From an uncultured Gammaproteobacteria bacterium (lineage in GTDB: Bacteria; Pseudomonadota; Gammaproteobacteria; DRLM01), in assembly GCA_963729605.1 (NCBI GenBank), contig CAVSNY010000007.1:224001-288000 (forward strand): a DNA stretch of 64,000 nucleotides. Reading direction: 5' to 3'. Both the position numbers and the translations under genes were made by a program. The first letter of the stretch is position 1. Each line of letters opens with the position of its first letter. A model generated the notes under the pieces. That model was not told where the DNA came from. It did no database searches and worked only from the letters and a program-made list of their open reading frames with translations. Below are positions 15,481-60,243 of the stretch, in pieces.

Positions 15481-15555
15481 TGGGGTGTCGCCAAGCGGTA
15501 AGGCACTGGATTTTGATTCCAGCATCCCCAGGTTCGAATCCTGGCACCCCAGCCA
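15481..15555 (+). tRNA. tRNA-Gln (TTG)
   Basis: TGGGGTGTCGCCAAGCGGTAAGGCACTGGATTTTGATTCCAGCATCCCCAGGTTCGAATCCTGGCACCCCAGCCA; typical ispE-tRNAGln-prs location. Confidence 0.95.
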
Positions 15556-19304: not shown

Positions 19305-19381
19305 GGCTACGTAGCTCAGCTGGTTAGAGCGCGGCACTCATAATGCTGAGGTCGGTGGTTCGAGTCCACCCGTAGCCACCA
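19305..19381 (+). tRNA. Elongator tRNA-Met (CAT)
   Basis: GGCTACGTAGCTCAGCTGGTTAGAGCGCGGCACTCATAATGCTGAGGTCGGTGGTTCGAGTCCACCCGTAGCCACCA; TATAAT plus a GCGC discriminator at 19251-19260. Confidence 0.95.
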
Positions 19382-22807: not shown

Positions 22808-23623
22808 ATGCAAATATTAGTTACCCTGAAAGAATATCAGATCTTGCGCGTGGCCTTGCAAACCGGCGTGCCGCATGTCGAGTGTTCGCTGGACTTGGGC
22901 CGATCCATGACGCGCGTTGAGGTGGCCGATGAGGGCTGGTGTTGGCAAGGCCGATGGTTTCCCTATCTCGAGAGTTGTAACGACAGGACCATCTATTATT
23001 GGGATGGCGAGTCGTTTCAACCGGTGTCGCGTTACACCACGTCCTTGATCAAATTGGTGCCGACTGACTGGGGGGCGCCGACCTTCGAGATCGACGGCAT
23101 CAAAATGCTGCCCACGGCACAACTCTCTCCTTACACCGACGCCGAACGCAAGGTGGCGTTGATACAACCGCGCGGCAAGCTGATATTGGACACCTGCGGC
23201 GGCCTCGGTTATTTCGCCGCCTGGTGCGTGCGCGGCCTGGCCCGGCGGGTGCTGTCTTTTGAAAAGAATCCCGACGTGGTGTGGTTGCGGGATTTAAATC
23301 CCTGGTCGCCGAAGGTGGACGAGGTGTTGAGTTTGACGGTGGGCGATATCGTCGAGCAGATCGTCTCGCTGCCCGATGGTTCGGTCGATGCCATCTTGCA
23401 CGACCCGCCGCGTTTCGGCATCGCCGGCGAACTTTACTCGCAGGTCTTTTACAATCAGTTCGCCCGGGTGCTGCGTCGCAAAGGCAAACTGTTTCATTAC
23501 ACGGGTGCGCCCAACAAATTGACCAGCGGCCGCGACGTGCCCAACGAAGTGGCGAAACGTTTGCGCCGCGCCGGTTTCGTCACGGAGTTGAACGGCGACG
23601 GCGTGCTGGCGGTGAAAAGTTAA
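22808..23623 (+). CDS. SAM-dependent methyltransferase (COG2521-like)
   Basis: APTFEIDGIKM, ILDTCGGLGY, DAILHDPPRF, GKLFHYTG. Confidence 0.8.
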   Translation: MQILVTLKEYQILRVALQTGVPHVECSLDLGRSMTRVEVADEGWCWQGRWFPYLESCNDRTIYYWDGESFQPVSRYTTSLIKLVPTDWGAPTFEIDGIKMLPTAQLSPYTDAERKVALIQPRGKLILDTCGGLGYFAAWCVRGLARRVLSFEKNPDVVWLRDLNPWSPKVDEVLSLTVGDIVEQIVSLPDGSVDAILHDPPRFGIAGELYSQVFYNQFARVLRRKGKLFHYTGAPNKLTSGRDVPNEVAKRLRRAGFVTELNGDGVLAVKS

Positions 23624-23834
23624 GCCGCACTGGCGCCGCGGCGAAGTTATGCGGCCGATCACCGCCCGCGGGTTCACGGTCCTTTTTGAAAGATCGAGTG
23701 GCCCGGCACGCCGGCCTCGCTTGTTCGACATCGAAGAATCTTTCGAATACATCGCTTGTCCGCTCGTGGCGAAGGGCGAAGATGAAAGAAGTGTTCTGCG
23801 GAGTGAGGATGATCATCCGGGCGCCCTCACCCCT

Positions 23835-24347
23835 GCCCTCTCCCGCTCGCGGGAGAGGGAGGAATCCGTCACGCTGACCGTGGCGCCCGTGATATTGCCT
23901 CTCCCGCGCGCGAGGGAGGAATGATTTTGCGAGGTACGAGAAAATTACGGACCAGTCTCTCCCGCGCGCGCGGGAGGAATGGGATGGAATCATTGCGTGT
24001 GCAGGCCGGCGCTGTCTCTCCCGCTCGCGCGAGCGAGGAATGGTGGTGGTCGTTCCGTCCGTTTCGGGTCATGCGCCTCTCCCACTCGTGTGCGCGGGAG
24101 GAATAATGCAGCGGTTCGACAAGAACATTCATGCCGAGCCTCTCGCCCGCGGGAGAGGAGAGAAATCATCGCCCAGGCGGGCGTCGATTTTCCGCTGAGC
24201 CTCCGGCTCGCGGGAGAGAGGGAAGTTGATCGGTTCATCCCCACGCATGTGGGGAACGAGCCTCCCGCGTGCGGGAGAGAGAAGAAATTACTTCCGCAGC
24301 TTCATCATCAGTTCGAACGAGCCTCCGGCTCGCGGGAGAGAGGGAAT
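23835..24347. CRISPR. Orphan, degenerate CRISPR-like array: 9 palindromic repeats (26-31 nt) and 8 unique spacers (30-33 nt)
   Basis: Repeats at 23835-23865, 23897-23922, 23955-23980, 24014-24041, 24075-24104, 24136-24166, 24197-24226, 24258-24288 and 24319-24347. Approximate consensus G(A/T)(G)CCTCTCCCGCnCGCGGGAGAG..GGAAT. Period 57-63 bp. No cas gene in the window. Confidence 0.75.
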
Positions 24348-24463
24348 AATAATGCTCAGCCTGGTATTCCAGTGTTGCGTTAGGTTGCCCATCGTGGACG
24401 GGTTCCAGCTGGGATGCCCCGGCGTCGCTGGCCCGCGACGCCGATGCTGGGATACCATAACCC

Positions 24464-24733
24464 ATGGCCAGGGTCGTCTTCACCGATAACTTGCAGCGGC
24501 TCGTCGCTTGCCCGCCCGTGGAGACGGACGGCGGCAGCTTGCGCGAGGTGCTGGACGCGGCATTCCGGAAACATGCGCGGGTACGGACTTATGTGCTCGA
24601 CGAGCAAGGCGCCATTCGTAAACACGTCGCGGTGTTCATCGACGGCGTCCTGGTCCAAGATCGTCAAACCTTGACGGATCCGGTGTCGCCCACGGCGCAG
24701 GTGTACGTCATGCAAGCCTTGTCGGGAGGATGA
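24464..24733 (+). CDS. MoaD/ThiS ubiquitin-like protein
   Basis: 89-aa beta-grasp pattern, YVLDEQG..RKHV.VFIDG, C-terminal ALSGG. Confidence 0.88.
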   Translation: MARVVFTDNLQRLVACPPVETDGGSLREVLDAAFRKHARVRTYVLDEQGAIRKHVAVFIDGVLVQDRQTLTDPVSPTAQVYVMQALSGG

Positions 24734-60204: not shown

Positions 60205-60243
60205 CCCCTCTCCCCCTGCGGGAGAGGGGAAGGGGAGAGGGGG
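60205..60243. repeat. Solo REP-like palindrome of the same family as the first array repeat
   Basis: Reverse complement CCCTCTCCCCTTCCCCTCTCCCGCAGGGGGAGAGGGG compared with 23824-23859 CCCTCACCCCTGCCCTCTCCCGCTCGCGGGAGAGGG. Confidence 0.75.

Follow-up and report, generated by a model that had tools for sequence, protein, structure and literature searches.

The origin of new CRISPR arrays and of new repeat families is an open question. Neo-CRISPR arrays and isolated arrays generated by off-target integration have been described: the type I-E Cas1-Cas2 of Escherichia coli was reported to found new arrays by integrating off target (Nivala, Shipman & Church 2018, as related in papers citing it), and off-target acquisition is one of three origins proposed for isolated arrays (Shmakov et al. 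2020, as summarised in PMC13142298). According to these accounts, the direct evidence for the birth of a new array comes only from the E. coli overexpression experiment, next to circumstantial cases in two other species. Here, we analysed a stretch of 64,000 nucleotides (the window; C7:224001-288000) from the genome of an uncultured gammaproteobacterium (G000; 3.48 Mb, 61% GC, 7 contigs without N, 94.5% complete), in which nine direct copies of the hairpin of a dispersed repetitive extragenic palindromic (REP) element are separated by eight unrelated spacers. With a probability of about 0.62, we consider that a Cas1-Cas2 integrase inserted spacers off target into REP hairpins of this genome, giving rise to natural neo-CRISPR arrays that now have the look of decaying scars.

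As far as the E. coli neo-CRISPR is described in the citing papers, the locus resembles it in its first repeat, which is not a CRISPR repeat, in the combination of a spacer-sized insert with a duplicated target, in the lack of adjacent cas genes and in its 61-bp unit. In contrast to that case, it is natural and not a product of overexpression, its seed is a dispersed REP element of the MITE (miniature inverted-repeat transposable element) kind, several loci are affected, up to eight spacers are present, one spacer corresponds to a foreign CRISPR repeat, and no cognate I-E integrase was found in the assembly. Isolated or orphan mini-arrays (Shmakov et al. 2020, in the same summary) likewise have no neighbouring cas genes, and off-target acquisition is an accepted route to them; here, however, the seed is an identifiable dispersed element, relatives carry empty or shorter states, and the repeats differ from all cas-linked repeats. 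In the literature covered, which did not extend to Nivala 2018, Shmakov 2020 and the supplements themselves, we provisionally found no description of a natural series of REP/MITE-seeded arrays at several loci, of an unexpanded orthologue in a sister species, of strain polymorphism in unit content or of a CRISPR repeat captured as a spacer.

The array region (23824-24347) is part of an 840-bp intergenic gap. Between 23837 and 24347, nine copies of about 29 nt of the REP-type palindrome follow one another in direct orientation, with eight spacers of about 32 nt between them. The parts of the array are as follows, where R and S stand for repeat and spacer and z compares the folding of a repeat with that of shuffled sequences:

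23771-23823 (+), left arm of the dispersed REP/MITE-like element that would have seeded the array, 82-91% identical to other genome copies
23824-23836 (+), arm of the CCCTCAC type, part of the complete REP element and found only ahead of repeat 1
23837-23865 (+), R1, 29 nt made up of a hairpin with a 9-bp stem and an 8-nt tail, z -3.1
23866-23893 (+), S1, 28-32 nt depending on the start of repeat 2, unique in the genome
23894-23922 (+), R2, core 23898-23922, decayed hairpin, z -0.6
23923-23951 (+), S2, unique in the genome, 24-mer without match in viral contigs
23952-23980 (+), R3, z -2.3
23981-24012 (+), S3, unique in the genome, 24-mer without match in viral contigs
24013-24041 (+), R4, z -1.9
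24042-24075 (+), S4, unique in the genome
24076-24104 (+), R5, last of the R1-R5 sub-family, z -2.4
24105-24135 (+), S5, common to related strains (metagenome runs X3 and X1)
24136-24164 (+), R6, first of the R6-R9 sub-family, z -0.6
24165-24196 (+), S6, terminator-like hairpin with T-run, covered by a contig of run X1
24197-24225 (+), R7, matching repeat 9 at 28/29 nt
24226-24257 (+), S7, in which 24231-24257 reproduce a type I-E CRISPR repeat exactly, in reverse orientation
24258-24286 (+), R8, z -2.0
24287-24318 (+), S8, unique in the genome, not seen in the contig of run X1
24319-24347 (+), R9, last repeat, followed by the native right flank

A repeat search recovered one family of 9 copies of 29 nt, which are 69-83% identical to copy 1 and start 61, 54, 61, 63, 61, 61, 61 and 61 bp apart from R1 to R9. 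Together with the shuffle tests given below, this confirms the nine repeats and eight unrelated spacers that an initial annotation, made from the sequence alone, had placed at these positions; its statement that repeat 1 is part of a complete dispersed element, of which repeats 2-9 lack the arm, also holds. The units of R6-R9 keep a strict 61-bp register of a 29-nt repeat and a 32-nt spacer, and conservation begins sharply at the first repeat base. Two repeat sub-families can be distinguished, R1-R5 with the shared tail GGAGGAAT and R6-R9 with a 5' GAGCCTC, and spacer 5 lies at their junction. Several of these traits are those of a canonical type I-E array, namely the 29-nt repeat, the GC-rich stem with an 8-nt tail, the spacers of about 32 nt and the 61-bp period. 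Unlike in such an array, the repeats are only 53-97% alike and belong to a REP family, no leader or promoter was found, and neither were Cas6e, Cse1 or I-E Cas2. The near-identical direct repeats of 23-50 nt that mark a functional cas-associated CRISPR array are not seen either: mean pairwise identity is 71.6%, and near-identity (28/29 nt) is restricted to R7 and R9.

The spacers vary in length between 28 and 34 nt, are exactly 32 nt long within R6-R9 and are mutually unrelated. The best local score of any spacer against another was 15 (shuffle mean 15.0), their in-register identity was 0.27/0.26 against an expected 0.26, and gapped alignment gave 46.0% identity as compared to 45.3 +/- 1.1% for shuffles and 71.6% for the repeats with the same aligner. 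The idea that the spacers are alike or stem from one contiguous source, which had been put forward as an alternative, is contradicted by this shuffle-level likeness and by a related strain in which S5 stands alone between two repeats. The halves of the units occupied by spacers are thus at chance identity, in contrast to a simple minisatellite, in which units are alike over their full length; Tandem Repeats Finder reported nothing for the array, which is expected where only half of each unit repeats. The repeats were described initially as hairpins throughout, which applies to five of the nine: R1, R3, R4, R5 and R8 fold clearly better than shuffles (z <= -1.9), R1 with a perfect 9-bp stem and -18.1 kcal/mol, and R2, R6, R7 and R9 fold no better. 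Since four of nine repeats are not better folded than shuffles, selection for structure cannot explain the likeness of the repeats as compared to the random spacers. Sequence of equal age that is not maintained would diverge equally, and the spacers were therefore different from their arrival. Spacer 6 contains a 5-bp GC stem followed by a T-run at 24170-24193, which is terminator-like on the plus strand (24170-24183) and also on the minus strand (24183-24170); it may be a captured terminator fragment or a product of chance.

When the window array was compared with phages and plasmids by blastn, matches fell only on the spacer-7 region, where all but one of the 25 listed rows of the plasmid search lie. 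Most of the plasmid records concerned belong to Deinococcus (31), Thermus (12), Pseudomonas (9) and Acidiphilium (3). Public genome stretches that contain the spacer-7 27-mer at 24231-24257 letter for letter number at least 119 and come from many phyla. Among the matches listed, these stretches carry it in arrays with a period of 61 bp (1879 intervals; the next most frequent is 62 bp with 62 intervals), and in these arrays it is always trailed by the same two letters. In one of them (L093), the array adjoins Cas3 (HD domain, E 6.7e-38) and Cse1 (E 1.5e-63), which is the I-E signature and therefore identifies the repeat as type I-E; the plasmid matches are taken to be I-E arrays as well. In its own genome the spacer-7 sequence has a single copy, and a search for the 27-mer in the 11 further genomes of the order, with up to 2 mismatches allowed, found no copy. 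Elsewhere in the genome, 12-mers of the I-E repeat were found 5 times, as compared to 7.5 expected, and none lies inside a CRISPR array. As this exact I-E repeat is absent from the rest of the genome and from the other genomes of the order, spacer 7 is inserted foreign DNA, which lies precisely within a spacer slot. In metagenome runs X1 and X3, contigs with the I-E repeat reach summed depths of 2845 and 6685, respectively, versus about 20 for the flanks of the array; such arrays must therefore be carried by organisms or plasmids of the same habitat. The runs with these contigs, which match the region 24218-24268 at around 100 times the flank depth, are biofilter and bioreactor metagenomes; overall, the species is present in biofilter, bioreactor and groundwater communities (runs X1-X18).

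Repeat 1 is the hairpin of a complete element that consists of a left arm, the CCCTCAC-type arm and the hairpin. With a loose regular expression that covers the arm and the hairpin, 88 matching places are obtained in the genome, among them both sub-families of the element and a few near-matches, and window positions 23771-23861 align at 82-91% identity to copies at C6:157336, C7:419186, C4:311637, C4:53940 and C3:161952. The genome contains 297 hairpin cores in its 3.48 Mb, for which we calculate about 0.2 neighbour pairs 56-61 bp apart; 14 were found. The mode of this spacing is 61 bp (61 seven times, 60 twice and 59 three times), and it is not due to chance. Inspection of the other REP copies for expansions, as the initial annotation had proposed, revealed at least four further REP mini-arrays with a period of 59-61 bp:

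C7:419230-419560, REP array of 6 repeats with periods of 61, 60, 61, 61 and 57 bp (C7:419k)
C4:311389-311660, REP array of 5 repeats (C4:311k)
C4:40690-40900, REP array of 4 repeats (C4:40k)
C6:224663/224724, REP array of 2 repeats 61 bp apart (C6:224k)
C4:40966/41025 and C6:105149/105205, possible REP arrays

Every array is polar: the complete element stands first, and the copies that consist of the hairpin alone lie on the side that faces away from the CCCTCAC arm. In C7:419k and C4:311k, the last repeat is followed by the canonical right arm of the element (scores of 34 and 41; null maxima of 25 and 26), and both are therefore expansions inside one element. This is claimed for these two arrays only; at the window array, the right flank scored 20 against the canonical right arm (null 19.4), which is not significant. 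Repeat variant and tail differ from array to array, pointing to local copying and not to independent arrivals of the element. None of the 14 spacers in the other arrays has a second copy in the genome, save for an internal segmental duplication in C7:419k. There (C7:419255-419540, L235), spacers A and C have second copies, A2 and C2, of 93-96% identity, and the middle spacer B is missing from the duplicate; this state reflects the segmental duplication of units and a subsequent loss.

Known composite REP structures are organised differently. Bacterial interspersed mosaic elements (BIMEs) combine REPs of alternating orientation with few conserved types of linker, and REPINs (REP doublets forming hairpins) are inverted pairs. 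The arrays share with them the extragenic GC-rich palindrome, the family of hundreds of copies and the position between genes. By these definitions they differ in that all copies are direct, copies 2-9 lack the arm and consist of the hairpin only, and the linkers are unique and of fixed length. A preprint on VIPR, in which REP appears together with Cas1, is unrelated and concerns 5-bp GGYNN arrays.

Shorter and empty versions of the arrays were found in relatives, among them, at a locus other than that of the window, a single unexpanded element of the kind for which the initial annotation had recommended searching. The window locus is a synteny break in the compared genomes of relatives, and in the sister species G003 the flanking genes are on different contigs and have other neighbours; it is present, however, in metagenome contigs with flanks 94.5-96.4% identical. 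In a 21.5-kb contig of run X3, position 23865 is joined to 24318 via 30 letters that correspond to spacer 5 with 1 mismatch, so that the array reads R1-S5-R9. A contig of run X1 spans 24096-24220 and reads S5-R6-S6-R7, followed by the right flank without S7 and S8, and in a 10.3-kb contig of run X10, R1 and the right flank lie 73 letters apart. The two repeat sub-families and the shared S5 suggest an ancestral state with two unlike hairpins or, alternatively, growth at both ends. Among 80 metagenome loci with the flanking methyltransferase (best 83% amino acid identity), no REP array was found, and a REP core is present in 14/80.

At the C7:419k locus of G003 (flanks 92% identical) the element is unexpanded, and a single hairpin is directly followed by the right arm. 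At C4:311k (flanks 93-96% identical), the G003 version consists of two repeats and a single spacer. This spacer is, by eye, about 91% identical to the G000 spacer next to the complete REP; beyond it, in the direction of the right arm, the G000 array contains another three spacers, which are unrelated. From the genomes G001 and G002 the element is missing at both sites; the G002 site at C4:311k (G002:C57, around 111230-111520, L251) contains a long microsatellite-like run of 8-9-bp units and a different palindrome. The orthologues of C4:40k and C6:224k are uninformative: synteny is broken at one, and for the other no match exists in G003, and G001 and G002 show short gaps that lack the element. 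Close relatives thus carry fewer units at three loci, the G000 version is the longest at all three comparable loci, and unit content thus changes within a flank divergence of 4-8%. A pattern of three REP units was detected in 1/12 genomes of the order (G000) and in 2/401 genomes of a class sample, G000 and G244, and the match in G244 is a plain tandem repeat of about 60 bp with a similar hairpin and the same linker each time.

We propose that a Cas1-Cas2 integrase, acting away from its own array, would take the GC-rich REP/MITE-like hairpin as a CRISPR repeat. Staggered cuts at both borders of a segment of about 29 bp (the hairpin and a short 3' tail) would permit ligation of a captured fragment of about 32 nt, and gap repair would duplicate the segment. 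Repeated events of this kind may have produced the nine repeats and eight spacers here and the smaller arrays at no fewer than four other element copies, and spacer 7 would have been captured from the type I-E CRISPR array of another replicon. The arrays would since have changed as non-functional scars by mutation, hairpin decay and recombination between repeats. To our knowledge, a fixed-length insert with a duplicated target of about 29 bp is the product of only the Cas1-Cas2 family, and it is from this that we infer the agent. Three hallmarks of a neo-CRISPR are seen, as R1 is the hairpin of a dispersed element that exists unexpanded at the C7:419k orthologue, i.e. a pre-existing non-CRISPR first repeat, a repeat-length duplication with a spacer-length insert (29 + 32) is strict in R6-R9, and close relatives are polymorphic for the inserts. 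The initial annotation had proposed that an integrase repeatedly inserted captured DNA at a REP hairpin. The part of this proposal that concerns repeated insertion and duplication is well supported by the chance-level spacers, the foreign spacer 7, the recurrence at other loci and the state of relatives; for the integrase, no I-E adaptation genes were found in the assembly.

The type of the enzyme can be narrowed down by comparison with the CRISPR-Cas systems of the genome. The four Cas1 matches of G000 each lie beside their own non-I-E array and belong to one I-F-type system and two systems with 37-nt repeats, and the three repeat families of these systems differ from the REP repeats. The genome-wide check for cas genes that had been suggested found Cas1 but neither Cas6e nor I-E Cas2. 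The I-F-like array (C4:153801-171580) has 297 repeats of 28 nt, with Cas1 at C4:145271, and a period of 60 bp in 285/296 intervals (mostly 28 + 32), and the periods of the two other systems are 68-76 bp. Among the 4 genomes of the genus, G000 is the only one with more than one Cas1 match and the only one with an I-F Cas1. The 61-bp mode of the REP arrays and spacer 7 appear to favour an I-E-type enzyme (29 + 32 = 61) that would have acted in trans, encoded for example by a plasmid since lost or not assembled; such a system, if it was also the donor of spacer 7, would make the tidier story. The resident I-F Cas1-Cas2/3 is a live alternative as the agent, and its adaptation has evidently been very active. 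Two adjacent Cas1 matches (L002/L004, C7:615204-616597), one full-length and one covering profile positions 1-113 only, lie beside the array C7:612497-614353 and may represent a duplicated, split or fused cas1.

Several observations weigh against off-target integration by Cas1-Cas2, some of which concern the enzyme. Cas6e (PF08798), I-E Cas2 (PF09707) and Cse1 (PF09481) had no match in the 94.5%-complete assembly, with the qualification that in control genomes these three family searches matched only Thermus, so that their sensitivity is uncertain, and G000 has no I-E array. Cse1 was detected in 1/11 other genomes of the order (G006), and I-E systems therefore circulate in the family; a search of G006 for an I-E array with a generic stem pattern yielded only scattered palindromes, at control level. 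No AT-rich leader or promoter was found at the window array, including no sigma-70-like promoter in 23500-24600, and no cas gene lies beside it; the lack of cas genes and of an obvious AT-rich leader had been noted initially.

A second group of such observations concerns the spacers. Seven of the eight window spacers had no match in phages, plasmids or their own genome, which leaves spacer 7 as the sole success of the source search that the initial annotation had advised, and the same holds for all 14 spacers of the other REP arrays; two of these arrays gave nothing meaningful against the phage and plasmid libraries. For 24-mers of S5, S2 and S3 there were 0 matches in viral contigs, and for a 22-mer of S5 there were 0 in metagenome contigs. 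No spacer was found to be self-derived (best genome match S5, 19/20, E 0.015), and no protospacer was found for any window spacer, hence no protospacer-adjacent motif was derivable. As a positive control, 3960 nt of the genuine I-F array (L237, C4:153801-157760; roughly 65 spacers) gave only 1-2 weak matches. Against phages, these were one clear spacer-sized match (29/32, E 0.3) of the I-F spacer at L237 positions 1889-1920 to transposable Mu-like Pseudomonas phages and a doubtful one, and the matches against plasmids were repeat-driven. The libraries are nearly blind for this organism, and the negative protospacer searches therefore say little. Furthermore, spacer 7, S1-S4 and S8 were seen in the G000 assembly only; S1-S4 and S8 are not covered by the related contigs, which is not evidence of their absence.

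Other points of this kind concern the geometry and history of the units. Those of R1-R5 are irregular, with 57-63 bp and with (CG)n runs of varying length in the hairpin loops. The I-E integrase acts as a ruler, and this length spread exceeds what would be expected of it, so that later indels in the (CG)n loops must be assumed. The sequence of R8, which lies between R7 and R9 (identical to each other over 28 nt), departs from that of both at 6-7 positions, and R6 is similar to R8. This is not predicted by simple serial duplication, and gene conversion or hairpin-templated mutation must be invoked. S6 is common to G000 and run X1 and missing in run X3, and losses therefore certainly occur. Gain and loss are not separable by comparing the strains, with gain the likely direction as the sequences stand.

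An old tandem amplification of hairpin and linker by slippage or unequal crossing-over would dispense with an integrase, if the linkers had since diverged to randomness and relatives differed by deletions. We regard this as unlikely, even though segmental duplication does take place within arrays (A/A2 and C/C2 in C7:419k), R7 and R9 as well as two identical repeats of C4:311k make repeat-repeat recombination plausible, unit loss is needed anyway for the distribution of S6, and G244, among the 401 class genomes, has just such a plain tandem repeat of about 60 bp with a constant linker. The repeats have remained about 72% identical without structural maintenance and the spacers are at shuffle level, whereas neutral sequence of equal age should diverge equally. 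Spacer 7 is a pristine foreign CRISPR repeat and cannot have arisen by decay from a neighbouring unit, and the spacer common to G000 and G003 still has about 91% identity, while the extra G000 spacers of C4:311k show no likeness to it. Moreover, the absence of the element from the orthologous sites of G001 and G002 makes the arrays no older than the arrival of the element in the lineage of G000 and G003.

The insertion itself may have been the work of another, element-specific enzyme, such as the REP-associated Y1 transposase or some other integrase, in place of Cas1-Cas2, perhaps as part of a new repeat-spacer memory; this appears rather improbable. Such an enzyme would account for the restriction of the arrays to this element family and always to the same side of the hairpin, for the cognate I-E genes not being found in the assembly and for the near-confinement of the pattern to G000 (1/12 genomes in the order; 2/401 in the class, including the plain tandem of G244), which indicates something special here. 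One Y1 transposase of the RAYT (REP-associated tyrosine transposase) kind is encoded in the genome, but this IS200/RAYT-like gene (L229, C7:53-415), at the start of contig C7, is followed by a palindrome of a different family. We know of no transposase family that combines a target duplication of about 29 bp with a fixed insert of about 32 nt, the 29 + 32 = 61 geometry coincides with that of I-E arrays, no gene is linked to any of the arrays, and the hairpins decay.

The same facts bear on the function of the arrays. The initial annotation considered an undescribed REP-based memory or guide-RNA locus, which finds no support in view of the decaying hairpins, the lack of a promoter-like site and the lack of a linked dedicated gene. 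With no promoter-like site, decaying hairpins and no cognate processing enzyme, the arrays probably have no function. We consider it quite improbable that they work as a repeat-spacer memory in which an element-specific or co-opted integrase stores spacers and a hairpin-binding nuclease makes guides, independently of known Cas effectors. If true, it would be of interest as an adaptive memory that does not depend on known Cas effector sets and records foreign DNA at many loci. In a milder form of this idea, the dispersed repeat family would serve as a nursery for new CRISPR repeat families.

Orphan arrays left after loss of cas genes are common (PMC13142298 and PMC8616872, in the parts consulted), and the 61-bp period and the hairpin with its 8-nt tail resemble an I-E repeat. 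The array could accordingly be seen as the eroded remnant of an ordinary cas-associated array whose repeat is merely REP-like and whose cas operon was deleted, a view that is very unlikely, as repeat 1 joins without a break onto the arm and left flank of an element with dozens of copies, the arrangement is found again at four or more unlinked loci, and G003 has the unexpanded element at an orthologous site. Nor does the repeat belong to a catalogued CRISPR family, which the initial annotation had raised as a possibility, as far as Rfam can tell: when 23700-24450 was scanned permissively, the 11 rows obtained were at chance level (best E 0.41), and none of the CRISPR-DR families came up to threshold. 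Even spacer 7, an exact CRISPR repeat, matched no CRISPR-DR model, and Rfam is therefore a poor test for CRISPR repeats here. Finally, an assembly artefact, in which some of the array and spacer 7 in particular would have been joined chimerically to the abundant I-E arrays of the community, as the summed depths given above and the lack of coverage of S1-S4, S7 and S8 by related contigs might suggest, is extremely unlikely given that spacer 7 sits in perfect 61-bp register between REP repeats with no long word in common that could mislead an assembler, that S5, S6 and the repeat types are confirmed by independent contigs and that the genome is in only 7 contigs without N.

This genome seems to present a natural birth series, in which one hairpin family is found at five or more loci with 2 to 9 repeats. 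The unexpanded orthologue, the strain differences and the captured CRISPR repeat as a molecular fingerprint make the question of array birth testable. If Cas1-Cas2 did insert the spacers off target, adaptation integrases leave scars outside their own arrays. For annotators, REP-rich genomes can hide CRISPR-like arrays that repeat finders miss.

The array is flanked by two genes, and the whole window had nothing above the Rfam gathering score except two tRNAs. A further REP palindrome lies downstream:

15481-15552 and 19305-19378, tRNA genes, the sole above-threshold Rfam matches in the window
22808-23623 (+), methyltransferase-like gene, left neighbour of the array
24464-24733 (+), ThiS-like gene, right neighbour of the array
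60205-60243 (-), single palindrome from a related sub-family of REP, whose arm is CCCTCTCCCC

The last of these had been called a solo copy of the family that seeds the array; a REP palindrome is indeed present there, but it is on the minus strand and, with its different arm, belongs to the related sub-family. The REP family also occurs as inverted doublets with a spacing class of 99 bp inside a longer MITE-like unit (e.g. C6:188631-189561), and three such doublet units are arranged in tandem with a period of about 350 bp.

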